From the NCBI GenBank assembly GCA_964429295.1, contig CAYSBL010000003.1, forward strand, positions 44,767-108,766: a stretch of DNA of 64,000 nucleotides. The letters run 5' to 3'. The DNA comes from an uncultured Rikenellaceae bacterium. GTDB lineage: Bacteria; Bacteroidota; Bacteroidia; Bacteroidales; VadinHA17. Each line of letters opens with the position of its first letter. Position 1 is the stretch's first letter. The notes under the pieces are model-generated. The model was not told where the DNA came from. It ran no database searches and saw only the letters and a list, made by a program, of their open reading frames with translations. Made by a program: the position numbers and the translations under genes. Shown here piece by piece: positions 126 to 13,004 of the stretch.

Positions 126-875
126 TCACTTCATCTGGTTAATCATGCTTGCAGAGAAACCAGCGCCGAATCCGTTGTCAATATTGACAACAGTTACACC
201 CGATGAACAGCTTGTCAGCATCGCCAGGAGGGCGGAAATTCCTCCGAAACTGGCTCCGTATCCCACACTTGTGGGCACAGCAATGACAGGCTTGCTTACC
301 AGTCCCCCAACCACACTTGCCAGGGCTCCTTCCATGCCTGCGATTACTATTATTACACGGCATTTCCTGATTTCAGGCAGCTTATCGACCAGGCGATGTA
401 TCCCGGCAACTCCGGCATCATAGATCCTGACAACTGAGTTTCCGAGCAGTTCAGCTGTCACGGCCGCTTCCTCGGCAACGGGTATATCGGAAGTGCCTGC
501 CGTGATAACAGCAATTGACGTATCGGGTCTTTCCGTTTCACGGAACGGGATACTTATGATCCTTGCTTCCGGATAGTATACCGCATGAGGAAAAATATCC
601 CTGACTGCTTCAAACATTTCCTTTCCGGCCCTGGTACCGATTACATTGTTCCTTTTTGCCGCCATTTGCCTGAAGATACCTATGACCTGTCCGGTTGTCT
701 TCCCGGCACAGTACACTATTTCGGGATAACCTGTCCTGATTTCCCGCTGATTGTCGATTTTTGCAAAACCGAGATCTGTATAGGGGAAGTCGTGCAATAT
801 ATCAAGAGCTTCCTGTACGCTTTTGCTGCCGTCCTTTATCTCAGTGAGGAGTTTTTCTATTTCGTCCCTGTTCAT
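126..875 (-). CDS. larB: Nickel-pincer cofactor biosynthesis protein LarB (PurE/AIR-carboxylase-like)
   Basis: 249-aa ORF. It has a PurE-like C-terminal half (IAVITAGTSDIPVAEEA, IIVIAGMEGALASVVGG) behind a LarB-type N-terminal extension. Its ATG overlaps the larE stop as ATGA (872-875). Confidence 0.85.
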   Translation of the reverse strand: MNRDEIEKLLTEIKDGSKSVQEALDILHDFPYTDLGFAKIDNQREIRTGYPEIVYCAGKTTGQVIGIFRQMAAKRNNVIGTRAGKEMFEAVRDIFPHAVYYPEARIISIPFRETERPDTSIAVITAGTSDIPVAEEAAVTAELLGNSVVRIYDAGVAGIHRLVDKLPEIRKCRVIIVIAGMEGALASVVGGLVSKPVIAVPTSVGYGASFGGISALLAMLTSCSSGVTVVNIDNGFGAGFSASMINQMK

Positions 876-1684
876 AATATTGGTTTTTCAGGATCATAAG
901 AGCCTGACCTGTATCCTTCAAGATCCAAAGATACATATCTGAATCCTATTTTCTTAAGGCCGGCGACAATCATTTCCCTGTAAGGAAGCTGTCCCATTTT
1001 TCCGATAAATTCAGGGAGGCATTCTATCCTTGCCAGGTCGCCATGAATCCTGACCCTGGTTCCAGGATATCCGGCATTTTTAAAGAATTCTTCGGCCTGT
1101 TCTGCCATATTGAGCGTGCCGGGGCTTACAGTGGTGTTGTATGGTATTCTTGTGAGAAGGCATGCCATCGGGGGTTTATCCGCAATATCAAGTCCCTCAA
1201 GTCTGAGAAGGTCCCTGATTTCCTGTTTGGTCAGACCGGCTTCCATAAGCGGACTTCTGATCCCCAGTTCCCTGAGAGCCCTGAGACCCGGCCTGTGAAC
1301 ACCGGCATCATCGGCATTTGACCCGTCAGCCACATGTGCGAAACCATGGTCGGCAGCATACCTTCGCAGGTGATCAAAGAGTATCTTTTTGCAGATATAG
1401 CATCTGTCCGGAGGATTATCCCTGATCTGTTCGGGAAAGGGCAGCTCCAGAATACTGTGATTTATGCCGTGAACTCTTGCAAACTCAGTCGCTTCTTTAA
1501 TTTCAGCAACAGGCATGTAAGGTGTCCGGAGTGTCAGGCCCATTATCCTGTCCTTAAGCAGAGTATGTGCACGGAGAAGGAGATATGAACTATCCACTCC
1601 TCCCGAAAAACCTACGACAAAGGAATTCATCTCCCGGAGTATCCGGTCAAGCCCGTCCCTGTTGTTTCCGGTTACGTCCGTCAT
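872..1684 (-). CDS. larE: ATP-dependent sacrificial sulfur transferase LarE (PP-loop ATPase)
   Basis: 270 aa. PP-loop motif GFSGGVDSS lies near the N-terminus. A conserved Cys in PPMACLLTRIPY sits where LarE proteins carry the sulfur-donating Cys. ATGA overlaps occur with both neighbours (1681-1684 and 872-875). Confidence 0.85.
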   Translation of the reverse strand: MTDVTGNNRDGLDRILREMNSFVVGFSGGVDSSYLLLRAHTLLKDRIMGLTLRTPYMPVAEIKEATEFARVHGINHSILELPFPEQIRDNPPDRCYICKKILFDHLRRYAADHGFAHVADGSNADDAGVHRPGLRALRELGIRSPLMEAGLTKQEIRDLLRLEGLDIADKPPMACLLTRIPYNTTVSPGTLNMAEQAEEFFKNAGYPGTRVRIHGDLARIECLPEFIGKMGQLPYREMIVAGLKKIGFRYVSLDLEGYRSGSYDPEKPIL

Positions 1685-2856
1685 TTGTTGCTCATAATAG
1701 CCGACATAATGGTATTATAGACCTCCTTTACAGGAATATTTCTTTCTGCCGCGATCTTTCTGCATTCCTCAAACTCGGGTTTGACTGATACCTGCATTCC
1801 TCCGAAGAACGATCTTTTTACAATAACATCACCGTAAATGGTATTAACCTTGATTGTTTCCCTTGTAAGTGTATCCTTGTCGAATTCAAAGGTTCGCATT
1901 CCGAGAGTTGTTGATTCCCTGAAGATTATCTCTTTCAGCCTGCCTTCAGCACCTTTTTCGCATATCACACTGAGCATCACTCCGGGACGTCCCTTTTTCA
2001 TAATAAGTTGAGTGAAAAAAACATCGGCAGCGCCTGACATGAAAAGCTTTCCTGATATGTGGTCATAGAATTCGGGATTCATGTCGTCTATGTTGGTCTC
2101 CATGAGAACAGCCCTGTGACCCCGCACCTTATCTTCGTTTGATTCGCCCAGAAATACCCTGAGAACGTTCGGGACTACCGGGTGTTCCTTATGTCCGATC
2201 CCATATCCGGTTTTTGTTATTGTCAGCCCGGGTCCTGCACCGAATTTTGTTCCGAGGGCAGCAATTATAGCAGCGCCTGTTGGTGTTGTTGCCTCAAAAT
2301 CAACTCCACCTATCTTCACGGGAATTCCCTTTATTATTTCAGAGGTGGCCGGAGCCGGGACGGGAAGCCTGCCATGGTCGCAGTTCACAAACCCGCTTCC
2401 AAGCTCAACATCCGAAACATAAACTGCTTCAACCCCAAGTTCAGTATAGCAGACTGCAGCACCAACAATGTCGACAATTGAATCAACTGCTCCGACCTCG
2501 TGAAAATGTACATGGTCGACCGGGATTCCATGGACCCTGGATTCTGCTTCTGCAATCTTCATGAATATCCTCATGCTCAGGTCCCTGACCTCCACAGATA
2601 AAGCCGATCCGTTAATTATCTTCTCAATATCCGGAAGATGCCTGTGTACATGTTCATGGCTTGTCTGTCTGACGGTAACTTTTGTCCCGGTAATTCCATG
2701 ACGCTGACTTCTTTCAGTTGAAAGTTCCCATCCTGCCAGGTTCAACTTCTCAAGTTCCTTCCTCAGAAATGCCGCATCAACACCCAGGTCGATCATCGCT
2801 CCTAGATTCATGTCACCGCTGATACCGGAAAAGCAATCATAATAGAGTACTTTCAT
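1681..2856 (-). CDS. larC: Nickel insertion protein LarC (pyridinium-3,5-bisthiocarboxylate mononucleotide nickel chelatase)
   Basis: The ORF track gives 1681..2949. The conserved LarC N-terminus MKVLYYDCFSGISGDMNLGAMIDLG starts at the ATG at 2856, giving 391 aa. A His-rich SHEHVHRH stretch and an HFHEVGAVDSIVD motif are present. Confidence 0.85.
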   Translation of the reverse strand: MKVLYYDCFSGISGDMNLGAMIDLGVDAAFLRKELEKLNLAGWELSTERSQRHGITGTKVTVRQTSHEHVHRHLPDIEKIINGSALSVEVRDLSMRIFMKIAEAESRVHGIPVDHVHFHEVGAVDSIVDIVGAAVCYTELGVEAVYVSDVELGSGFVNCDHGRLPVPAPATSEIIKGIPVKIGGVDFEATTPTGAAIIAALGTKFGAGPGLTITKTGYGIGHKEHPVVPNVLRVFLGESNEDKVRGHRAVLMETNIDDMNPEFYDHISGKLFMSGAADVFFTQLIMKKGRPGVMLSVICEKGAEGRLKEIIFRESTTLGMRTFEFDKDTLTRETIKVNTIYGDVIVKRSFFGGMQVSVKPEFEECRKIAAERNIPVKEVYNTIMSAIMSNK

Positions 2857-2984
2857 AAAAATCCTTTCATTAGGTTTAACAAACAATTCGCGCCAATGTT
2901 CCAGCCTGAAGTTATCAATATTAAATGTCAAGCCAGCGTAAATATACAATTTACAATCATTGGAGAATTGATAAAAATTATTAC

Positions 2985-2992
2985 TATTTTTG
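2985..2992 (+). promoter_or_regulatory. Candidate Bacteroidota -7 promoter box (TAnnTTTG) for the DUF362/polyferredoxin pair
   Basis: TATTTTTG lies 41 nt upstream of the ATG at 3033, inside the 176-bp divergent larC/DUF362 intergenic region. Confidence 0.3.
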
Positions 2993-3032: not shown

Positions 3033-3953
3033 ATGAGACGAAGGGAGTTTTTCAGAAAATCAGTCGGAGCGGGTATTGCTGCAGGTGCAGCTTTCAGCCT
3101 GGGCGGATATAACAAGCTATGGGCATCATCGGCATCTCCTGCAAAATATGATATGGTAGCTGTCATGGGCGGAGAACCGGATGCCATGTTCGACCTGGGA
3201 ATACAGGAATTGGGAGGAATGGGAAATTTCATTCAGAAAGGACAGAAGGTTCTTGTAAAACCCAATATCGGATGGGATGTTGTTCCTGACCTGGCTGCCA
3301 ACACAAATCCCGGTCTTGTAAAAAGGATCGTGGAACACTGCTTCAGGGCGGGAGCTAAGGAAGTTTATGTTTTTGACCATACCTGCGACAACTGGATTAA
3401 CACATACAGGAATTCAGGAATAGAAAGAGCTGCTAAAACAGCCGGGGCAAAGGTCGTTCCTGGAAATACTGAGAACTATTACCAGGAGATCGAGATACCT
3501 ACTGCCGTTAAGCTTAAGAAAGCCAAGGTTCATGAACTGGTGCTGGAAACCGATGTGTTCATAAATGTACCCGTTCTGAAGGACCATAATTCCACCAGGA
3601 TGACTGCCTGCCTCAAAAACATGATGGGTGTTGTGTGGGACAGGGGATACTGGCATTCAAATGATCTTCACCAGTGTATTGCAGACTATGCGTTGTTCGA
3701 AAAGAAACCTGTTCTCAATATTGTTGATTGCTACAACGTGATGGTAAAGCATGGCCCGCAGGGTGTTTCAAAAGAGGATGTTGTCCAGATGAAATCACAG
3801 ATTATTACCTCCGACTGGGTTGCAGGAGATACCGCAGCTGCCAGAATGCTAAACATTGATCCCCAGCGGATCGACTATATTCCCATAGCTCACAAGATGG
3901 GACTTGGAACAATGAATCTGGATTCGCTGAATATCAGGCGTATTAAAATGTAA
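3033..3953 (+). CDS. Tat-signal DUF362 domain protein (candidate exported redox enzyme)
   Basis: 306 aa. It has a twin-arginine signal MRRREFFRKSVGAGIAAGAAFSLGG and a DUF362-type core (KVLVKPNIG, NVPVLKDHNSTRMTACLKNMMG). Confidence 0.8.
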   Translation: MRRREFFRKSVGAGIAAGAAFSLGGYNKLWASSASPAKYDMVAVMGGEPDAMFDLGIQELGGMGNFIQKGQKVLVKPNIGWDVVPDLAANTNPGLVKRIVEHCFRAGAKEVYVFDHTCDNWINTYRNSGIERAAKTAGAKVVPGNTENYYQEIEIPTAVKLKKAKVHELVLETDVFINVPVLKDHNSTRMTACLKNMMGVVWDRGYWHSNDLHQCIADYALFEKKPVLNIVDCYNVMVKHGPQGVSKEDVVQMKSQIITSDWVAGDTAAARMLNIDPQRIDYIPIAHKMGLGTMNLDSLNIRRIKM

Positions 3954-3959
3954 TTTGTA

Positions 3960-5522
3960 ATGACATCTTCCTTTCTCAGGAAATTTAGGATTTTGTTTTC
4001 TTCCATCGTCCTGATCTGCTTTCTTTTCGCATTTGCGGACTTCAGAGCGGTCATCCCGGAGAAATATATCAACTACCTCCTCTATCTTCAATTTGTTCCT
4101 TCAGTGCTGAAATACATCGACCTGCTTACAGCGGCTGCCGGAGGTTTTATGATAGTTCTTTTGCTGACGCTGCTTACAGGCAGGACATATTGTTCTTTTA
4201 TCTGTCCGCTGGGTATAGGGCAGGATCTTTTCAGCAGGATCGGCGGAAAGGTGAAGAAGAAATTCAGAAGATTCGGATTTAAAAAGCCGCATACTGTTAT
4301 ACGTTACGCGGTACTTGTCCTCACTCTCGGGACGGCCATCTTCTGGGGGCTCTACCTGGTTACTCTTCTCGACCCTTACAGCATCTTCGGACGTTTTATG
4401 ACCTTTCTTGGGGAACCCGTTATCCTGCTGATTAACAATATGCTTACCTGGTTGCTTGGAAAGTTTGACGTTTACACTCTGCATCATGTTGACATCAGGG
4501 CATTCAATCCGGCGACATACGCAGTGCCTGTAGCATTCTTTCTTCTTGTTGGTGTCCTGTCCTTTATCAAGGGAAGGCTCTACTGCAACATGATCTGCCC
4601 TGTCGGGACTCTCCTTGGACTTGTTTCAAAAGTATCAATTTTCAGGGTGAAATTCATTGAAAGCAAATGTACCAGATGCGGCAGATGTTCATTAAGGTGC
4701 AAATCGTCATGTATTGATTTTCTTAATTACAATATAGATGTCAGTCGTTGCGTCAATTGTTTCAACTGCATTGATGTATGTCCTGAAAAGGCACTTTCAT
4801 ATGGATTTATTGGTTCAGGCGAAAAGCAGGAGAAAACCGACGAGGGCAGAAGGAAGTTTGTTGCAGGATCTATTCTGATGCTTATGGGGATCACCCCGGT
4901 TGCCAGCGGACAGGAGAAAAAGGGAGTCCCTGTTCCCAAAAAGGAATCGACCGTGAAGGAGCCAAGAACATTTCCGGTATGCCCTCCGGGGGCCGGATCG
5001 TTTGAGGAATTCACTGAAAAATGCACAGCCTGTTCCCTTTGCATCAGCGCCTGCCCCAATAATGTACTTCAGCCGGCAGTGAAGCAGTATGGCATAACGG
5101 GTTTTATGCAGCCGGTGATGGACTATCACAGGAGCTTCTGCACCTTCAATTGTACCCTTTGTACGGAGGTCTGCCCTACAAATGCACTGAAGCCATTGCT
5201 CCTTGAAGCAAAAAAACTGACTCAGATAGGGAAAGTGATCTTTATCAAGGATAACTGCATCGTAAAAACTGAAAAGACAGCCTGCGGAGCCTGTTCCGAA
5301 GCCTGTCCTACAAAAGCCGTTTACATGGTGCCCTATGAAGATAATCTTCTGATCCCTGAAACCAACCAGGATATCTGTATCGGTTGCGGGCATTGTGAAT
5401 TTGCTTGTCCCGTAACTCCCTTTAAGGCAATATTCGTCGACGGAAATCCTGTTCATATGGCTGCAGCCAGACCTGAAATAAAAGAATCCGAAATCACAAA
5501 ACCTGAAGAGTTTCCTTTCTGA
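3960..5522 (+). CDS. Membrane-bound polyferredoxin, NapH-like N-terminal module fused to a NapG-like multi-[4Fe-4S] module
   Basis: 520 aa. The hydrophobic N-terminal half carries two CxxxCP motifs (CSFICPLG, CNMICPVG). Six ferredoxin-type Cys motifs follow: CTRCGRCSLRC, CVNCFNCIDVCP, CTACSLCISACP, CTLCTEVCP, CGACSEACP and CIGCGHCEFACP. It starts 7 nt after the DUF362 stop. Confidence 0.8.
   Translation: MTSSFLRKFRILFSSIVLICFLFAFADFRAVIPEKYINYLLYLQFVPSVLKYIDLLTAAAGGFMIVLLLTLLTGRTYCSFICPLGIGQDLFSRIGGKVKKKFRRFGFKKPHTVIRYAVLVLTLGTAIFWGLYLVTLLDPYSIFGRFMTFLGEPVILLINNMLTWLLGKFDVYTLHHVDIRAFNPATYAVPVAFFLLVGVLSFIKGRLYCNMICPVGTLLGLVSKVSIFRVKFIESKCTRCGRCSLRCKSSCIDFLNYNIDVSRCVNCFNCIDVCPEKALSYGFIGSGEKQEKTDEGRRKFVAGSILMLMGITPVASGQEKKGVPVPKKESTVKEPRTFPVCPPGAGSFEEFTEKCTACSLCISACPNNVLQPAVKQYGITGFMQPVMDYHRSFCTFNCTLCTEVCPTNALKPLLLEAKKLTQIGKVIFIKDNCIVKTEKTACGACSEACPTKAVYMVPYEDNLLIPETNQDICIGCGHCEFACPVTPFKAIFVDGNPVHMAAARPEIKESEITKPEEFPF
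4848..4913 (+). other. Internal twin-arginine-like signal-anchor segment within the polyferredoxin
   Basis: Codons 297-318 read RRKFVAGSILMLMGITPVASG: RRxF, a hydrophobic helix, then a small-residue end. The segment separates the first two Fe-S motifs from the last four. Confidence 0.4.
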
Positions 5523-5587
5523 TAAGGGAAACGAGCCAAATTCTCGGTAAACATGATTTTTGTTTGCCTGAGCTATTTTTAAGGTGT

Positions 5588-5595
5588 TAATTTTG
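5588..5595 (+). promoter_or_regulatory. Candidate TAnnTTTG promoter box for the mce-mmd-cit operon
   Basis: TAATTTTG lies 34 nt upstream of the ATG at 5629. It sits inside the GTG-started N-terminal extension given in the ORF track. Confidence 0.3.
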
Positions 5596-5628
5596 CTTAA
5601 ATTATACTCATCAAAAACATGCTCTTTT

Positions 5629-6051
5629 ATGAAACCTACACATATAGAACATATTGGTATTGCAGTCTCAAATCTGGCCGAATCGGTGGCGTTTTACGAA
5701 AAGGTTCTGGGCCTGAAGTGCTATAATATTGAAGAAGTTACTGATCAGAAAGTAAGGACTGCTTTTTTTATGGTGGGTCAGACCAAGATAGAACTTCTGG
5801 AATCGACCGATCCCGAGGGTACTATTGCACGTTTCATTGAAAAGAGGGGAGAGGGGATCCATCATATAGCATTCGCTGTGGAGAATCTTGAGGAAAAACT
5901 CAGGCATGCGGCGAATGAAGGTGTGAGACTGATCGACACTCATCCCAGAAAAGGGGCCGAAGGTCTGGATATAGCTTTTCTTCACCCTGCTGCAGCACAT
6001 GGAGTACTTATAGAGCTTTGCGAACATCCCGGCAGCGAAAGGCCGGAATAG
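5629..6051 (+). CDS. mce: Methylmalonyl-CoA epimerase (VOC/glyoxalase fold)
   Basis: The conserved N-terminus MKPTHIEHIGIAVSNLAESVAFYEKVLGL starts at the ATG at 5629, whereas the track ORF starts at a GTG at 5584. HHIAFAV and LIEL motifs are present. It lies immediately upstream of the carboxyltransferase. Confidence 0.85.
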   Translation: MKPTHIEHIGIAVSNLAESVAFYEKVLGLKCYNIEEVTDQKVRTAFFMVGQTKIELLESTDPEGTIARFIEKRGEGIHHIAFAVENLEEKLRHAANEGVRLIDTHPRKGAEGLDIAFLHPAAAHGVLIELCEHPGSERPE

Positions 6052-6097
6052 CACTTAATTATTTTTCAATTCAAACAGAACACAAAACAAGATTCAT

Positions 6098-7657
6098 ATG
6101 GATAGCCAGGAAAAGGTAAAGCAACTTATTGAGCTGAGAGAGAAAGCCCGTCTCGGAGGAGGATTGCAAAAGATTGAGGATCAGCATTCCAAGGGAAGAC
6201 TGACTGCCAGGGAAAGGATTAACATACTTCTCGACGAAGGAAGTTTTGAAGAGTTTGACATGTTTGTCACACATCGTACCGAGGATTTCGGTATGGGTAA
6301 GAAAAAATTTCTGACCGACGGGGTGATTACAGGGCACGGCACTATTGATGGCAGGGTGGTTTATGTGTTTGCTCAGGATTTTACCATCTTTGGCGGTTCG
6401 TTGTCGGAAGCCTTTTCCCAGAAGATATGCAAGGTCATGGATCAGGCAATGAAAATTGGCGCTCCGGTCATCGGGATAAACGACAGCGGCGGGGCACGAA
6501 TCCAGGAAGGTGTCAGGAGCCTTGCAGGCTATGCAGAGATTTTTGAAAGGAACATCCTTGCTTCCGGGGTAATTCCGCAGATATCAGCGGTATTCGGTCC
6601 ATGCGCCGGAGGGGCGGTATACTCTCCCGCTCTTACCGATTTTATTATAATGAGCGAGAAAAGCAGCTACATGTTCGTGACAGGACCAAAAGTCACAAAG
6701 ACAGTTACAGGGGAAGAGATATCGACAGAGAATCTTGGCGGCTCAGGAGTCCACGGCACAAAATCGGGAGTTGCCCATTTTGTTGTGGAGGAAGAGGAGC
6801 AAGGTCTGCTGCTTATTCGCAAATTGCTAAGCTATCTGCCGCAAAACAATATGGAGGAGCCTCCCCTTACCGAGTGCGACGACCCTATCGATCGCAAGGA
6901 AGACGATCTCAACAACCTTATACCTGAAAACCCCAATCAGCCATATGATGTAAAGGACATTATTTTTAAAATAGTTGACTATAGTGAGTTTCTCGAAATT
7001 CATGCAGGATATGCCAGGAATATTGTGGTCGGCTTTGCCAAGATGGGAGGGATGCCGGTGGGTGTTGTGGCGAACCAGCCCAGCTTCCTTGCAGGCGTAC
7101 TGGATATTGATGCATCAAGAAAGGCTGCTCGTTTCATCAGGTTCTGCGATGCTTTCAATGTTCCCATCGTTACACTGGTTGATGTACCGGGTTTTCTTCC
7201 AGGAAGCGGGCAGGAATATGGCGGCATAATAATTCATGGAGCAAAGCTGATGTTCGCCTATGGTGAGGCTACTGTGCCCAAGGTAACAGTTACCTTGCGC
7301 AAATCATATGGCGGAGCCCATTGTGTAATGTCGTCCAAGCAGCTCCGCGGCGATATCAACTATGCCTGGCCTTCAGCTGAAATAGCAGTGATGGGTCCTT
7401 CGGGCGCCATTGAAATACTTGAAGGGAAAGCTATCGCCGGAATAAACGATCCGGATGAAAAAGCTGCCTTCATTGCAGAAAAGGAGAATGAATACCGGAC
7501 CAGGTTTGCCAACCCTTATGAGGCTGCAAAATTTGGATTCATAGATGATGTGATCGAACCCAGGAATACACGTTTCAGGATAATAAGGGCTCTGAGAACG
7601 CTCGCAACCAAAAAGGATCCCGGACCAATGAAGAAGCACGCTAACATTCCGCTATAA
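6098..7657 (+). CDS. mmdA: Methylmalonyl-CoA decarboxylase alpha subunit / acyl-CoA carboxyltransferase (12S type)
   Basis: 519 aa. It has the typical carboxyltransferase N-terminus ([16 protein letters not shown]) and the [17 protein letters not shown] and [16 protein letters not shown] motifs. Confidence 0.85.
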
Positions 7658-7668
7658 CCCATACAGCC

Positions 7669-8031
7669 ATGCATAACTTTTCACTAATACCGTCAGGACT
7701 TTATATTGATGACTCATCCGCAGTCAGGTTGCTGATCATTCTCAATATTATCCTGATAATAATTATTCTGCTTTGGTTTGTTATCGGGATACTGGCACCA
7801 CGGATAAAAAAATCCCTTGCCGGCCGCGAAGGAAGAAAAGCAGTTGACGAAACCGTTTCACCTGAAACTACTGGTGGCGATAAGGATACGGAAGCAGCTA
7901 TTGCAACAGCGCTTTATCTGTATTTCAATGAGATGCACGACGAGGAAAGCGATGTTATAACAGTTAAAAGGGTGTCGAAGACATATTCGCCTTGGAGCTC
8001 GAAGCTTTACAGTATGAGAAATTTAAGGTGA
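7669..8031 (+). CDS. OadG-like small membrane subunit of Na+-decarboxylase complexes
   Basis: 120 aa with a single strong TM (LLIILNIILIIIILLWFVIGIL). The C-terminal EAAIATALYLYF...DVITV segment is typical of Bacteroidota OadG/MmdD-like proteins. Its position is between the carboxyltransferase and the biotin carrier. Confidence 0.6.
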   Translation: MHNFSLIPSGLYIDDSSAVRLLIILNIILIIIILLWFVIGILAPRIKKSLAGREGRKAVDETVSPETTGGDKDTEAAIATALYLYFNEMHDEESDVITVKRVSKTYSPWSSKLYSMRNLR

Positions 8032-8076
8032 TTTTAACCGAAAGGGAACTCAATTTGATCATGTAAGAAAAAAAAT

Positions 8077-8496
8077 ATGAAGAACTTCAAGTTTTTAATA
8101 AAAGGGAAAAAATATGATGTGAGCATACTATCCCTTACCGGAAATGTGGCAAAGCTGAAGGTTAATGATGAGGATTATGTTGTGGAGATTGAAAGGAATG
8201 TAAAACGGGATAAGACTCCGATTGTAGTCAGGTCGACGATCAAGGAACCCCAGAAGGAGATCGAAAAGAAGACGGGAGGTCCTAAAACTGAAGTCAAATC
8301 TCCTCTTCCTGGGATCATTGTAAAGATTTTTGTTAAACCGGGCGATATTGTAGCGAAGAATCAGCCACTGTTTACTCTTGAGGCAATGAAAATGGAAAAC
8401 GAAATAAAGGCTGAACGCGACGGCGTGATCTCAGGTGTGAAGGTAGCTGCAGGTCAAACTGTTCTGCAGGATGAGGTGATAATGGAAATGGATTGA
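8077..8496 (+). CDS. Biotin carboxyl carrier subunit (biotinyl domain)
   Basis: 139 aa. The C-terminal biotinyl domain carries the biotinylation motif EAMKMENEI. Confidence 0.85.
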   Translation: MKNFKFLIKGKKYDVSILSLTGNVAKLKVNDEDYVVEIERNVKRDKTPIVVRSTIKEPQKEIEKKTGGPKTEVKSPLPGIIVKIFVKPGDIVAKNQPLFTLEAMKMENEIKAERDGVISGVKVAAGQTVLQDEVIMEMD

Positions 8497-8530
8497 TATT
8501 CTTTGGAAAAAAATCAATAATCACGGCATC

Positions 8531-9757
8531 ATGGACAACAACTGTGTGGTATCAGGTAACTCAGGTCCAAAAATAAGGTCCGACTGCCAGACAACATTAT
8601 GTCTGAAGGACGAAGGAGGGATCTTAATTGAACTTAAATCGAAAGTGGAAACACTTTATGGTGAATCCATAAGAACTCTTTGTACGAAAATGCTCAACAG
8701 CTTCGGGATTGAGAATGCACACCTCTCAATAGAAGATTCGGGAGCACTCCCCTTTGTAATAATGGCCCGGCTCGAAGCAGCCGTGAAAAAGCTGACCGGA
8801 ACAGGGATGAACTTTCTTCCTGATCTCCCCGAAGATTATAAGTATCCTTCCCAGCGTGACCGTTTTCGGTTTACGAGGCTTTATATTCCGGGTAACACCC
8901 CAAGCCTGATGATAAATGCAGGGCTTCATTCGGCCGACGGGATCATTCTTGATCTGGAAGACTCTGTGGCCCCCGAAAGAAAGGATGAAGCAAGGATACT
9001 GGTCAGGAATGCCCTCCGCCAGCTCGATTTCAGGGGAGCTGAAAGAATGGTGAGGATAAACCAGGGTAAAAGGGGCATGGCTGATCTTGATTCCGTTGTG
9101 CCGCAGAATGTGAACCTCATACTGATCCCAAAATGCGAAACACCTGAAAATGTGAAGGAGGTGGCTGACCATATTAGGAATATCATAACAGGATCGGGAC
9201 TGACCAGTCCAGTTTACCTAATGCCTATTATTGAAAGTGCAATGGGTGTGGAGCAGGCATTTGAGATTGCCAGAGCGGATGAAAGTGTTGTTGCAATGGC
9301 AGTAGGACTGGAGGACCTTACTGCTGACATGGGTGTCAGGAGGACAAGGAATGGGAGTGAAACCCTGTATGCAAGGACCAGGATCGTAAATGCAGCCAAA
9401 GCAGCTGGAATTCAGCCCATCGATTCCGTTTTCCCTGATGTTGCTGACATGGAGGGTCTGCTGAATAATGTTGCTCTTTCAAAGGCTCTTGGATACGAGG
9501 GTATGGGCTGTATACACCCCAGGCAGGTGGCAGTCATCCGGCAGGGATTTGCACCCGAAAAAGAAGAAATTGAAAAATCAAAAAAGATAGTAATGGCATA
9601 TGAGGATGCGCTCACAAAAGGCCTCGGAGTGGTTGCCATTGGTTCGAAAATGATCGATCCTCCTGTTGTGAAAAGAGCCCTGAGGTCTATCGATCTGGCT
9701 GTTAAGATGGGCCTTCTGGACTCAGGATGGAGGGATGAATCTTCGCCTGAAGTGTAA
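8531..9757 (+). CDS. Citrate lyase acyl carrier (CitD-like) fused to citrate (pro-3S)-lyase beta subunit (CitE, HpcH/HpaI fold)
   Basis: 408 aa. Residues 1 to about 95 resemble CitD (IEDSGALPFVIMARLEAAV, compared with E. coli DDKGALDCILRARLEAL). Residues from about 105 to 408 are CitE-like (RLYIPGNTPSLM, DGIILDLEDSVAP, IPKCE). Confidence 0.75.
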   Translation: MDNNCVVSGNSGPKIRSDCQTTLCLKDEGGILIELKSKVETLYGESIRTLCTKMLNSFGIENAHLSIEDSGALPFVIMARLEAAVKKLTGTGMNFLPDLPEDYKYPSQRDRFRFTRLYIPGNTPSLMINAGLHSADGIILDLEDSVAPERKDEARILVRNALRQLDFRGAERMVRINQGKRGMADLDSVVPQNVNLILIPKCETPENVKEVADHIRNIITGSGLTSPVYLMPIIESAMGVEQAFEIARADESVVAMAVGLEDLTADMGVRRTRNGSETLYARTRIVNAAKAAGIQPIDSVFPDVADMEGLLNNVALSKALGYEGMGCIHPRQVAVIRQGFAPEKEEIEKSKKIVMAYEDALTKGLGVVAIGSKMIDPPVVKRALRSIDLAVKMGLLDSGWRDESSPEV

Positions 9758-9780
9758 TAACTAATCTAAATTTGCTGATC

Positions 9781-11337
9781 ATGTCAATTCCGACTGTAAT
9801 AAATGCTGCGGGCAGGTCTGTCCCGACAGAATTAAACGGCAAACCTGCAATCCCATTCAGAGGCATAGGAAAATACAAACCTTCAGGAAATAAATACAGT
9901 CCACCCATACCATCATGCGCTGACTTTCCGCCTGATGGCAACAAGGTGGTTGCAACCCTTGAGGAAGCCCTCCTGCGATGCGGCATCCGTGATGGAATGA
10001 CCATCTCAACTCATCACCATCTGAGGGATGGAGACCTTATCAGCAACAGGATATTCGAGATAGCCTCCCTTATGGGCGTCAGAGATCTTGTTTGGCTGCC
10101 TTCAGCTTCCTTTCCCTGTAATGATCCCGTTATCAAATATCTGGAGGATGGAACCATCAACAGGATTGAAGGCAGCATGAACGGACCGCTCGGAAGGTTC
10201 GTTTCAGAGGGAAAAATGAAAGGAACTGCGGTGCTGAGGTCACATGGAGGAAGGGTCCAGGCTATACAGGACGGAGAGGTCAGAATAGATATTGCGGTTC
10301 TTGCCGCTCCCAGCGCCGATTCATTCGGTAATGCAAGGGGAACGGGAGGCAGCTCAGCATGCGGGGTTCTTGGCTATGCAAAAGCTGATTCAATGTATGC
10401 CGACAAGGTTATTATAGTTACCGACAACCTTGTTGACATCCCCTGTTTTCCTATGGAGATAGAAGGCAATTATGTTGACTGCGTGGTTGTTGTGGATAAA
10501 ATTGGAATACCTGAAAAAATAGTTTCCGGAACAACACAGATAACCAAAAGCCCCGACAGGTTGCTTATTGCCGAACTGACCGCAGCTTTCCTCCAAAAAT
10601 CGGGAATTCTAAAGGACGGTGTAAGGATGCAGGCAGGAGCAGGAGGAACCTCACTGGCTATCGGAGTATTCATTCATGATATACTCAGGAAAAGAGGATG
10701 GAAGTCGAAATTCGGATTTGGGGGCAGTACCCGGTACATGGTGGAAATGCTTGAGCAGGGACAGATGGAATACATACTCGATGCCCAGGTGTTCGACCTG
10801 GAATCAGTGGCTTCCCTTGCAAGAAATCCAAAACATATACCATATTCCGTATTCAATGCCTACAATTTCCATTCGAAAGGCAACCTGACTAGCATGATGG
10901 ACATAATGATACTCGGGGCAACAGAGGTGGACCTGAATTTCAACGGTAATGTGGTGACGCATTCTGACGGCTACCTGCTTCACGGTATCGGCGGCTGGCA
11001 GAACTGCCTTCATGCCAGGAACGTAATTCTTCCCCTGCCCTTGTTCCGAGACAGGATCCCTGTGATTGTTGATGAAGTTACGACACTGTGCGGACCGGGA
11101 GAACTTATCGATGTAATTATAACCGAACGGGGTATTGCCATAAACCCTCTCAGGCAGGATCTTATTGAAAGCACCAGGAACAGCGGGCTTCCCATAACCA
11201 CTATTGAAAAATTGAAACAGGAAGCCGAAAGGATTTGCGGAAAACCATCAAAGCCACTGTTCGATGATCAAATAGTTGCAGCAATTAAATGGGTCGATGG
11301 CACCGTTATTGATACTGTAAGGAAAATTAAAAAGTAA
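9781..11337 (+). CDS. citF: Citrate lyase alpha subunit (citrate CoA-transferase)
   Basis: The track ORF starts at a TTG at 9772, and the first ATG is at 9781 (MSIPTVINAAGR). The CitF-typical GMTISTHHHLRDGD motif is present. Length is about 518 aa. Confidence 0.85.
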   Translation: MSIPTVINAAGRSVPTELNGKPAIPFRGIGKYKPSGNKYSPPIPSCADFPPDGNKVVATLEEALLRCGIRDGMTISTHHHLRDGDLISNRIFEIASLMGVRDLVWLPSASFPCNDPVIKYLEDGTINRIEGSMNGPLGRFVSEGKMKGTAVLRSHGGRVQAIQDGEVRIDIAVLAAPSADSFGNARGTGGSSACGVLGYAKADSMYADKVIIVTDNLVDIPCFPMEIEGNYVDCVVVVDKIGIPEKIVSGTTQITKSPDRLLIAELTAAFLQKSGILKDGVRMQAGAGGTSLAIGVFIHDILRKRGWKSKFGFGGSTRYMVEMLEQGQMEYILDAQVFDLESVASLARNPKHIPYSVFNAYNFHSKGNLTSMMDIMILGATEVDLNFNGNVVTHSDGYLLHGIGGWQNCLHARNVILPLPLFRDRIPVIVDEVTTLCGPGELIDVIITERGIAINPLRQDLIESTRNSGLPITTIEKLKQEAERICGKPSKPLFDDQIVAAIKWVDGTVIDTVRKIKK

Positions 11338-11348
11338 TATTCTGTTAT

Positions 11349-11510
11349 ATGGGAAAATTCAAATGCAATATTTGCGGATTTGTCTACGATCCGGATGAAG
11401 GAGATCCGCACTCCGGAATAGGGCCGGGTACGGATTTCAGCGATCTGCCGGATAATTATAAATGTCCCGTATGCGGAGGCGGCAAGGACGAATTCTTTGC
11501 AGCCGACTGA
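11349..11510 (+). CDS. Rubredoxin (53 aa, below the ORF-track length cutoff)
   Basis: Hand translation gives MGKFKCNICGFVYDPDEGDPHSGIGPGTDFSDLPDNYKCPVCGGGKDEFFAAD. It has two CxxCG knuckles (CNICG, CPVCG) and the rubredoxin core YDP..GDP..GI.PGT.F..LP. It starts 11 nt after citF. Confidence 0.85.
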   Translation: MGKFKCNICGFVYDPDEGDPHSGIGPGTDFSDLPDNYKCPVCGGGKDEFFAAD

Positions 11511-11537
11511 GTTGATTGGCTCGCAACCTGTATGTAG

Positions 11538-13004
11538 TCAACTGTTTATGTCCGGGATATTTACCAATACATCGATAAGCAGATCCCAGAACATCTGAAC
11601 GGTATCAATCCTTATCTTTTCTTCAGGTGTGTGAGCTCCTCTTATGGTAGGACCAATGGAGATCATATCTATGCCCGGGAATTTCTCATAAATAAGACCG
11701 CATTCGAGGCCTGCATGTATTGCCCTTACAAGAGGCTTCCGGTTAAAGAGGTTCTCATAAGATTCAGAGGTTATTTTCAGTATTTCCGACTTTAAATTAG
11801 GCTTCCAGCCCGGGTAACCATCGGAGTGTGCAACCCTGGCATCTGCAATGCTAAGGCATTTTTCAACCATTGCTGCAACTTCATGTTTCGCTGCATCTAT
11901 TGAACTTCTCTGTGTGGTTACTATCCTGATTCTGCTGCTATCTGTAAAACCAACCGAGGCAAGATTGGTGGATGTCTCCACAAGGTCTTCCATATCTTCC
12001 GACCATGCAATAACTCCATGGGGACAGCATTCCAGAGCCTTTATCAGTTTTCTTTGACTTTCCCCGTCCATAACCGAAAGCGGTGCTTCTGTCTCTTCTA
12101 TGACAAGTTTCAGATCTTTCTCCAGGTCAGCGAATTCTTCTTTTAGTCTGGCATAAAATTCCCCGATATGGCTGATGATCTCCTTTCCGTGATCCTTGCC
12201 GGCTGCAATGACTGCAAAGGCTTCCCTTGGGATGGCGTTCCTCAGGTTACCGCCGTTAAAGCTGCTGACAGATATTCCGAACCTGTTTGTAAGACCGTCC
12301 AGAATAGTATTCATTATCTTGACTGAATTTCCGAATCCCTTGTGTATCTCATCACCCGAATGGCCACCGCGAAGTCCTGTAAGGGAGATCCTGAAACCGG
12401 TGCTGCCATCCCTGACCGGAACACTCCTGTACTGCATGTCTCCAACCGTGTCTATGCCGCCGGCACATCCGATGTAAAGTATGCCTTCGTCCTCCGAATC
12501 GAGGTTGATGAGAGTCCTTCCTTCAAAAAAGCCGGGCTGCAGGTTTATGGCACCGGTCATTCCTGATTCCTCGTCAACGGTGAACAGGCATTCTATTTTT
12601 CCGGCTTTCAGTTCGGGATCAACAAGGATGGCAAGCTGCGATGCAATCCCGATGCCATCATCAGCTCCAAGCGTGGTGCCTCTTGCGGCAACGTAACCTT
12701 CTGCAACATATGGAATGATCGGATCGGCAAGCCAGTCATGAGGATAATCAGCATTCTTTTCTCCAACCATGTCCATGTGGCTCTGCAGTACGATTGTTTT
12801 CCTTTTTTCAAATCCCTGCGAGGCCGGTCTGATGATAAGAATGTTCCCGGTTTTGTCTTCCTTTGATTCAAGTTTATGCAGATTTGCAAAATCCATAAGG
12901 TATTTTCTGATCCTGCCCTCGTTCTTGCTCAAACGAGGAATCCTGCATATTTCCCCGAAGTAGTTCCAGATTGGCGCTGGACTTAATTTGGATAATGTGC
13001 TCAT
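11538..13004 (-). CDS. pepD: Aminoacyl-histidine dipeptidase (Xaa-His dipeptidase, M20 family)
   Basis: The track ORF starts at a GTG at 13031. The ATG at 13004 gives MSTLSKLSPAPIWNYFGEICRIPR, which matches the E. coli PepD N-terminus pattern (LSQLSPQPLWDIFAKICSIPH). LQSHMDMV and DDGIG motifs are present. Confidence 0.9.
   Translation of the reverse strand: MSTLSKLSPAPIWNYFGEICRIPRLSKNEGRIRKYLMDFANLHKLESKEDKTGNILIIRPASQGFEKRKTIVLQSHMDMVGEKNADYPHDWLADPIIPYVAEGYVAARGTTLGADDGIGIASQLAILVDPELKAGKIECLFTVDEESGMTGAINLQPGFFEGRTLINLDSEDEGILYIGCAGGIDTVGDMQYRSVPVRDGSTGFRISLTGLRGGHSGDEIHKGFGNSVKIMNTILDGLTNRFGISVSSFNGGNLRNAIPREAFAVIAAGKDHGKEIISHIGEFYARLKEEFADLEKDLKLVIEETEAPLSVMDGESQRKLIKALECCPHGVIAWSEDMEDLVETSTNLASVGFTDSSRIRIVTTQRSSIDAAKHEVAAMVEKCLSIADARVAHSDGYPGWKPNLKSEILKITSESYENLFNRKPLVRAIHAGLECGLIYEKFPGIDMISIGPTIRGAHTPEEKIRIDTVQMFWDLLIDVLVNIPDINS

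Follow-up and report, generated by a model that had tools for sequence, protein, structure and literature searches.

Proteins that use both the Sec and the twin-arginine translocation (Tat) pathways were sought by Tooke et al. (2017, eLife 6:e26577, PMC5449189), whose screen asked for a twin-arginine motif with an even number of helices ahead of it and a single helix behind it. They present one such protein, Q1NSB0 of delta proteobacterium MLMS-1, as a NapH-NapG fusion and name it a "polytopic polyferredoxin" (PFD). Its fifth transmembrane domain (TMD5) was found to be Tat dependent, using maltose-binding protein (MBP) and AmiA reporters and RR-to-KK variants, and the handover from Sec to Tat was ascribed to low hydrophobicity of the transmembrane domain (TMD) and to positive charges following it. 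We describe here a protein of this architecture from an uncultured Rikenellaceae bacterium. The window, i.e. the whole stretch of DNA analysed (64,000 nucleotides, contig CAYSBL010000003.1 of assembly GCA_964429295.1, positions 44,767 to 108,766), carries an open reading frame (ORF) at 3960-5522 which, judged by its architecture, is a Bacteroidota PFD of the published dual Sec/Tat NapH-NapG fusion kind.

The fusion itself is not new. What the present analysis adds is a client for the PFD family, a Tat-exported protein of family DUF362 encoded directly upstream, and it is in this uncharacterised client that the interest of ORF 3960-5522 lies. We consider it probable that the protein is a fused NapGH-type electron wire, assembled by Sec and Tat, docked to the exported DUF362 protein and coupled to the quinone pool.

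Architecture of the fusion protein

The features recognised in the ORF, with the evidence for each in brackets, are the following.

3960..5522, plus strand: PFD, a NapH-like/NapG-like fusion of 520 aa (ORF, Pfam, NCBIfam below cut-offs)
3960..4664, plus strand: NapH-like membrane module, residues 1-235, with four hydrophobic helices and two CX3CP motifs (hydropathy, invariant cysteines)
4191-4208 and 4584-4601, plus strand: the two CX3CP motifs (C78, C82, C209 and C213 invariant)
4668..4784, plus strand: 2x[4Fe-4S] ferredoxin block, probably cytoplasmic, residues 237-275 (two CX2CX2CX3C motifs, invariant)
4839..4922, plus strand: putative internal Tat-type signal anchor, residues 294-321 (RR conservation, low hydrophobicity, start of the NapG model, split form)
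4974..5420, plus strand: NapG-like domain, probably periplasmic, with four [4Fe-4S] clusters, residues 339-487, PPG at 342-344 (16 invariant cysteines)
5457..5519, plus strand: acidic linker and C-terminal F518-P519-F520 tail, predicted DUF362 docking peptide (conservation, complex model)

A residue-level search recovered all the motifs that the initial annotation had listed in the 520-aa translation of the frame. The CX3CP motifs, CSFICP and CNMICP, stand at residues 78-83 and 209-214, and two ferredoxin motifs at residues 237-247 (CTRCGRCSLRC) and 264-275 (CVNCFNCIDVCP). The mid-protein twin-arginine segment RRKFVAGSILMLMGITPVASGQ occupies residues 297-318 (nt 4848-4913), and the four C-terminal cluster motifs are formed by C355/358/361/365, C394/398/401/405, C433/442/445/449 and C473/476/479/483. 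Two lengths given for these features were off by one: the string quoted for the RR segment has 21 residues (297-317) and not 22, and the DUF362 gene, which does adjoin the PFD gene, is separated from it by 6 nt and not 7 (its stop codon is at 3951-3953). Across 44 diverse members of the family, the motif cysteines are invariant (30/30), as is C251; together with the RR conservation reported below, this places the motif set far beyond chance. The Bacteroidota orthologues show little or no variation in the motif cysteines, PPG 342-344 and the C-terminal F-P-F.

The family is widespread, with more than 3800 PFD homologues, and 1335 representatives of 50%-identity clusters at E <=1e-30. In Pfam, the ORF matches Fer4_5, the NapH-type domain, and several Fer4 families. 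The NCBIfam NapH models align with approximately residues 195-283 (195-281 for the NapH/MauN model), so placed that the ferredoxin block 237-275 falls at their C-terminal end. The NapG model aligns with residues 289-493, starting at model position 3, which means that the signal peptide of NapG itself has its homologue in the internal RR segment. The NapG-like domain also matches NapF and polyferredoxin models, and has a predicted local distance difference test (pLDDT) value of 91 in the complex model presented below. Hydropathy peaks are found at residues 9-27, 55-73, 113-136 and 185-203, and the loop 82-112 contains 9 K/R, which fits a cytoplasmic location. In a full-length AlphaFold2 (AF2) model these N-terminal helices were obtained at pLDDT 70-86; the model was kept out of the fold search and of the topology reading. 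The elements of the PFD architecture are all there: a NapH-like module with two CX3CP and two [4Fe-4S] clusters, an RR before the last transmembrane segment, a weak fifth segment, and a four-cluster domain.

The internal segment (residues 294-321) reads D-E-G-R-R-K-F-V, followed by an Ala/Gly-rich h-region, Pro313, A-S-G|Q, then K320 K321. An alignment was made of the query and 150 representatives of 50%-identity clusters (151 sequences). The RR on which the initial annotation depended is conserved in these relatives, R298 being present in 143 of the 151; at position 297, R is found in 116 and K in 32 (R or K in 148/151), position 300 is F in 103, and 139 have L, I or V at position 301. For the internal signal, the family consensus reads D-x-S-R-R-x-F-L, followed by an Ala/Gly-rich stretch. 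Tat substrates carry a motif of the S/T-R-R-x-F-L-K type and then at least 13 uncharged residues; here, G-R-R-K-F-V is followed by 19 of them, and TatC is found in the genome (226 bits). On a rough hydrophobicity scale, the fifth segment is less hydrophobic than each of TM1-4 in 95% of the 151 representatives, and about 1.5 K/R come after it. The TAT-signal hidden Markov models (HMMs) of Pfam and NCBIfam gave no match with the excised 38-aa segment, and equally missed the canonical signals of the DUF362 protein and of the split NapG described next.

A search for genomes in which the two halves are separate genes found one, G169, where both adjoin DUF362 and the RR is at the N-terminus of the NapG-like half. 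The gene order, on one strand, is a major facilitator superfamily (MFS) transporter, DUF362, napH-like (299 aa), napG-like (223 aa), larC, larE and larB (locus L041 (G169:C115) 5232-11970). The napG-like gene overlaps the stop of the napH-like gene as ATGGATAA, and its product starts with MDKSRREAIKKGF (MDKSRRE), a normal N-terminal Tat signal, and ends in DFGF. The split may stem from a frameshift error in the variable linker. No other sampled genome of the family to which G169 belongs has LarC, which suggests that the cluster is a horizontally acquired cassette; G169 has the lar genes in the same operon and no Lar_N match at all, which speaks for a link between lar and the pair. The view that an internal Tat-type anchor connects a NapH-like module with a NapG-like domain of four clusters is thus supported by the motifs, the NCBIfam alignment, the RR conservation, the split form and the published fusion.

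The DUF362 partner and the proposed docking tail

Two features lie directly upstream of the PFD gene.

3033..3953, plus strand: DUF362 protein with a LarA fold, 306 aa, predicted to be Tat exported, predicted catalytic partner (Pfam E 2.5e-46, RR signal, Foldseek)
2985..2992, plus strand: Bacteroidetes-type TAnnTTTG box, a possible promoter 41 nt before the DUF362 start (pattern match)

The N-terminus of the DUF362 protein, MRRREFFRK, is a twin-arginine signal. Of 22 orthologues, 21 keep it, the exception being the copy of G169, with ERKDF. For the phylum, 301 evenly sampled genomes were searched: PFD was found in 38, and a DUF362 orthologue (cut-off E <=1e-40) in 36, all of which (36/36) also carry PFD. 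DUF362 stands directly upstream of PFD in 28/28 loci of this sample having enough flank. A wider scan over several phyla gave the same arrangement in approximately 66 of the 80 PFD loci fetched. Among the names of these 80 are Bacteroidales, Ignavibacteria/Melioribacter, Desulfobacterales, Competibacteraceae, Opitutaceae, Thermoguttaceae and Fibrimonadaceae, which are those deposited for metagenome-assembled genomes (MAGs) and may in some cases be misassigned; two cultured organisms, Parabacteroides faecis and Parabacteroides sp. Marseille-P3160, are included. A PFD with the C-terminal tail and no adjoining DUF362 was seen in four genomes, all with an orthologue elsewhere. In the genomes searched, PFD always adjoins or co-occurs with a Tat-exported enzyme, usually DUF362. 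We conclude that DUF362 is a fixed partner of the PFD wire of the window.

When the genes surrounding the pair were clustered over 22 contexts, each of about 20 kb, no further conserved gene came to light. A conserved third operon gene was thereby ruled out, as the only recurrent one, in 8/22 loci, is a small unannotated divergent ORF. This ORF encodes 170 aa without a Pfam match and lies directly upstream of DUF362 (L042:11543-12055 and homologues). A two-gene DUF362-PFD operon is likely, on weak evidence: the TAnnTTTG motif is not enriched in the window and argues only weakly for a promoter, and no convincing terminator was found.

We modelled residues 325-520 of PFD with four 4Fe-4S clusters and the mature DUF362 protein. 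The complex scored 0.65 (0.63-0.67 between runs), and the highest of the three controls 0.00; the predicted interface that the initial annotation had called for does exist in the model. In a benchmark, which holds only roughly for a complex run with its own alignments and ligands, a score of 0.65 is reached by 58/80 solved complexes and 2/110 mismatched pairs. The runs had at least 94% of contacts in common, with a pLDDT of at least 92 for the partner. The contacts of lowest error are those of F518-P519-F520 with DUF362 residues 43, 45, 267-274 and 296-303. The loop around C442/C445/C449 of PFD touches C118, R204 to H208 and 238-246 of DUF362, several of which are invariant.

The residues of the tail are conserved, F518 and F520 being invariant and P519 nearly so among Bacteroidota orthologues, and the tail follows the partner. 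All of the DUF362-paired PFDs have the acidic linker and the tail (91/91; F-P-F in 64, F-G-F in 26, W-A-F in 1), whereas none of the five PFDs paired with an aldo/keto reductase (AKR) has them (0/5), the protein ending about 20 residues earlier. Two independent lines, the complex model and the tail covariation, point to a direct binding of PFD to DUF362. The link to the upstream DUF362 protein, proposed in the initial annotation, can accordingly be founded on adjacency, co-occurrence, the predicted complex and the covariation of the tail.

The AKR-paired subgroup includes the two PFD genomes of the sample with no DUF362 orthologue, G243 and G119. In these, a PFD of 494-497 aa is followed by a Tat-exported AKR with a C-terminal 4Fe-4S dicluster domain, and the same arrangement was found in three further named genomes. 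The five loci are L130:8501-9901, L135:8531-9961, L134:5641-7005, L149:5303-6715 and L150:5245-6849, with PFDs of 494-505 aa; the partner that takes the place of DUF362 is PF00248 fused to the 4Fe-4S dicluster domain. LarC was found in 0/5 of the AKR-paired genomes. The usual cofactor of AKRs is NAD(P)H, which is absent from the periplasm. For one AKR family, use of the nickel-pincer cofactor has recently been demonstrated (PMC13524815).

Three side observations concern the surroundings of the pair and the DUF362 family. A further TAnnTTTG box at 5588-5595, just past the PFD stop, precedes the mce operon. After PFD, positions 5584-7657 encode a methylmalonyl-CoA epimerase and a carboxyltransferase of the mmdA type, neighbours that the closest relatives share (L062-L065, L123). 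Another protein of the genome with a DUF362 domain, of 388 aa (G000:C1:152814-153122; L011:1357-2523, minus strand), has the domain in its C-terminal part only, adjoins a DUF6599 gene and is unpaired with PFD.

Proposed electron path and cofactor

The fused wire could be assembled and could work as follows. Sec would insert the four NapH-like helices, leaving the two CX3CP motifs and the 2x[4Fe-4S] block in the cytoplasm, as homology suggests. The fifth segment, with its RR, would be passed to Tat, the folded NapG-like four-cluster domain would cross the membrane, and the segment would remain there as an anchor. The last NapG-like clusters would meet the conserved pocket of the periplasmic DUF362 protein, onto which the F-P-F tail of PFD would clamp. 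Electrons would then pass between the quinone pool of the membrane, with menaquinone from the futalosine pathway, and the substrate on which DUF362 acts in the periplasm. Quinone coupling is the default assumption, by analogy, since NapGH is described as the menaquinol dehydrogenase of Wolinella succinogenes in work cited by PMC5449189 and PMC5928378. The genome contains two MqnA/D-type genes and UbiA-type prenyltransferases, and menaquinone synthesis through the futalosine route is plausible.

Several points weigh against this reading. The NapH models (TIGR02163 / PRK09477) score 99.3 bits against a cut-off of 213 and 84.1 against 234, and the NapG / MauM models (PRK09476 / TIGR00397) 64.3 bits against 269 and 44.9 against 178.85. 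With scores so far under the cut-offs, the window PFD appears to be a relative and not an orthologue of NapH and NapG, and quinol oxidation is therefore an extrapolation. No match to MenA was found in the genome. The AF2 model of the full-length PFD has a mean pLDDT of 57, falling below 50 past residue 285. The scale used to compare the hydrophobicity of the fifth segment was a rough version of the biological scale. The score of the complex is the confidence of the model itself and not a measurement. Finally, the assignment to the family of Q1NSB0 is one by architecture.

A different source of electrons has to be considered. They could enter from a cytoplasmic donor, ferredoxin or NAD(P)H-linked, through the 2x[4Fe-4S] block, and go on through the CX3CP region to the periplasmic clusters. 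The cysteines of the cytoplasmic clusters and of CX3CP are invariant, no role has been assigned to CX3CP even for NapH, NosR and RdhC (PMC5928378), and the lack of a MenA match goes in the same direction. We nevertheless find this route unlikely, given that the sources named above cite NapGH of W. succinogenes as a menaquinol dehydrogenase, and given the futalosine-route genes of the genome, and the lack of a conserved cytoplasmic partner gene beside the pair.

The fate of the internal signal is a second matter. It ends in P-V-A-S-G|Q (window 4896-4913, residues 313-318), which resembles a signal peptidase I site, the family consensus being approximately A-L-A-Q. Were it cut after export, a five-helix NapH-like protein and a free NapG-like protein would result, that is, an ordinary NapGH pair. 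Pro313 followed by the small-x-small A315-S316-G317|Q318, the homology of the segment with the NapG signal peptide, and the split form of G169, which works as two chains, would all agree with cleavage. On the other side, small-x-small is common by chance in Ala/Gly-rich segments, and Tooke et al. had to introduce a cleavage site behind TMD5 before their reporter could be released, an indication that the native segment of MLMS-1 is left uncut (PMC5449189); we hold cleavage to be improbable.

That the RR segment is no anchor and the polyferredoxin tail stays in the cytoplasm, as a NapH/YccM-like protein with a long Fe-S extension beside a DUF362 protein exported alone, is very hard to maintain: the fifth segment is under the standard hydropathy threshold and the TAT-signal HMMs found nothing in it, though they missed the canonical DUF362 signal too, but the RR is kept across the family, export of the MLMS-1 homologue was shown by experiment (PMC5449189), the split form has an N-terminal RR, and the C-terminal domain is predicted to bind, and covaries with, a Tat-exported partner with which it must then share one compartment.

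We therefore retain an uncut, anchored wire, quinone-coupled and docked to DUF362, as the probable arrangement, and turn to the chemistry of the partner. The operon divergent from the pair is relevant here.

126..2949, minus strand: larC-larE-larB, nickel-pincer cofactor synthesis, divergent (NCBIfam LarC, LarE and LarB over cut-offs)

The AF2 model of DUF362 has a mean pLDDT of 85.8. In a Foldseek search of the PDB with this model, all the chains at E <=4e-4 (17/17) belong to the LarA family, with TM-scores of 0.4-0.5, and DUF362 shares one Pfam clan with DUF2088 of LarA (PMC11770544). A DUF362 profile had no LarA match among PDB sequences, and hhalign detected no homology between DUF362 and the LarA-like ORF of the genome itself. 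The predicted relation between DUF362 and LarA stands on the fold match and the Pfam clan, not on a residue-level match to the Lys/His ligands of LarA. That LarA-like ORF, of 423 aa (G000:C6:62426-62872; L009:766-2037, minus strand), has a weak Lar_N match of 33 bits and adjoins a short-chain dehydrogenase; owing to it, the lar operon of the genome is not strictly without a LarA-like gene. Weak Lar_N matches of this class (29-48 bits, ORFs of about 425-450 aa) occur in 17/301 genomes; 17/17 carry PFD/DUF362, and 8/17 are without LarC.

The lar genes accompany the PFD-DUF362 pair in a minority of loci, as context and not as a fixed part of the module. They are within 7 kb in 9/80 fetched loci, named Bacteroidales, Gammaproteobacteria and Thermoguttaceae and spread over at least 5 separate clades of the DUF362 tree. 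As lar genes are present in approximately 11% of the genomes of the phylum sample, this adjacency is far above chance. On the other hand, LarC is absent from 23/38 PFD genomes of the sample, all of them at least 99% complete, and the pair likewise occurs without LarC in P. faecis JCM 18682 and Parabacteroides sp. Marseille-P3160. LarB over cut-off was found in 32/301 genomes, nearly the same set as LarC. The invariant residues of DUF362 are identical in lar+ and lar- genomes. Of the LarA-type hydride-transfer centre put forward in the initial annotation, the LarA fold can be kept, while a nickel-pincer centre is not established, given the LarC-less genomes. These rule out an obligate dependence on the nickel-pincer cofactor as a general rule, though the cofactor may be used where lar genes adjoin. 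We conclude that the DUF362 protein of the window may use this cofactor, with the balance tilting somewhat the other way, and that such use is unlikely to be a general property of the PFD-DUF362 module. Salvage of the cofactor by auxotrophs would reconcile the lar adjacency with the LarC-less genomes, which is pure speculation.

A bolder proposal, which we put forward with considerable doubt, is that the PFD-DUF362 pair is a periplasmic oxidoreductase wired to the respiratory chain, whose LarA-fold hydride cofactor (the nickel-pincer nucleotide, where lar genes are present) would be recycled by the wire one electron at a time. If true, a wired cofactor would turn racemase-type chemistry into net oxidation or reduction outside the cytoplasm, and the AKR pairing would suggest a general means of operating nicotinamide-type folds in a compartment free of NAD(P)H. 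Among the papers that could be searched, none was found to tie DUF362 to lar genes or to PFD. Nickel-pincer chemistry of the window pair being unproven, what is gained at present is a proposed biochemical setting, periplasmic and fed by Fe-S clusters, for a large family of unknown function, and for the PFD wire a testable interface through its partner-specific docking tail. Most genomes with the pair are without cofactor genes, and among them the cultured Parabacteroides strains would be practical test organisms.

Comparison with known systems

The NapH-type membrane module with two CX3CP motifs is shared with NosR, NirI and RdhC (PceC), for which an electron delivery from quinol to a periplasmic enzyme has been proposed (PMC5928378). 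These proteins differ from the window PFD by an N-terminal periplasmic FMN-binding domain and by having no NapG-like domain. The genome also encodes a second NapH-like polyferredoxin of 391 aa (G000:C1:239752-240789; L002:1492-2667, minus strand), with Fer4_5 and Fer4 in another architecture than that of PFD, which adjoins an FAD-dependent oxidoreductase gene.

NapGH of E. coli and W. succinogenes, and likewise NosGH and MauMN, have the same two modules and the same motifs: NapG is Tat exported, while NapH spans the membrane with four helices and has two CX3CP motifs together with two clusters on the cytoplasmic side. However, NapG and NapH are separate polypeptides serving nitrate reductase, whereas the window protein is fused and its client is DUF362. 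A free-standing NapG with an N-terminal signal is seen only in the split G169 form, the signal of the window protein being internal. Service to nitrate reductase in the manner of NapGH was ruled out for this genome, in which no NapA scores over its cut-off.

The actinobacterial Rieske protein Sco2149 and the heme-molybdenum cofactor (MoCo) protein Sco3746, a fused MsrQ-MsrP, are comparable in their biogenesis: the early helices depend on Sec, the last helix and the folded cofactor domain on Tat, and a membrane subunit is fused to a Tat-exported one. Their cofactors and families are unrelated to those of PFD.

The closest likeness is to Q1NSB0, which also consists of a NapH-like module and a NapG-like four-cluster domain with five predicted TMDs. 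Its TMD5 (338-359) lies about 40 residues further along than that of the window PFD, and the consulted parts of PMC5449189 mention no genomic partner for the MLMS-1 protein. In contrast, the family of the window PFD is tied to DUF362 or, in a subgroup, to an AKR, and carries a C-terminal tail specific to its partner.

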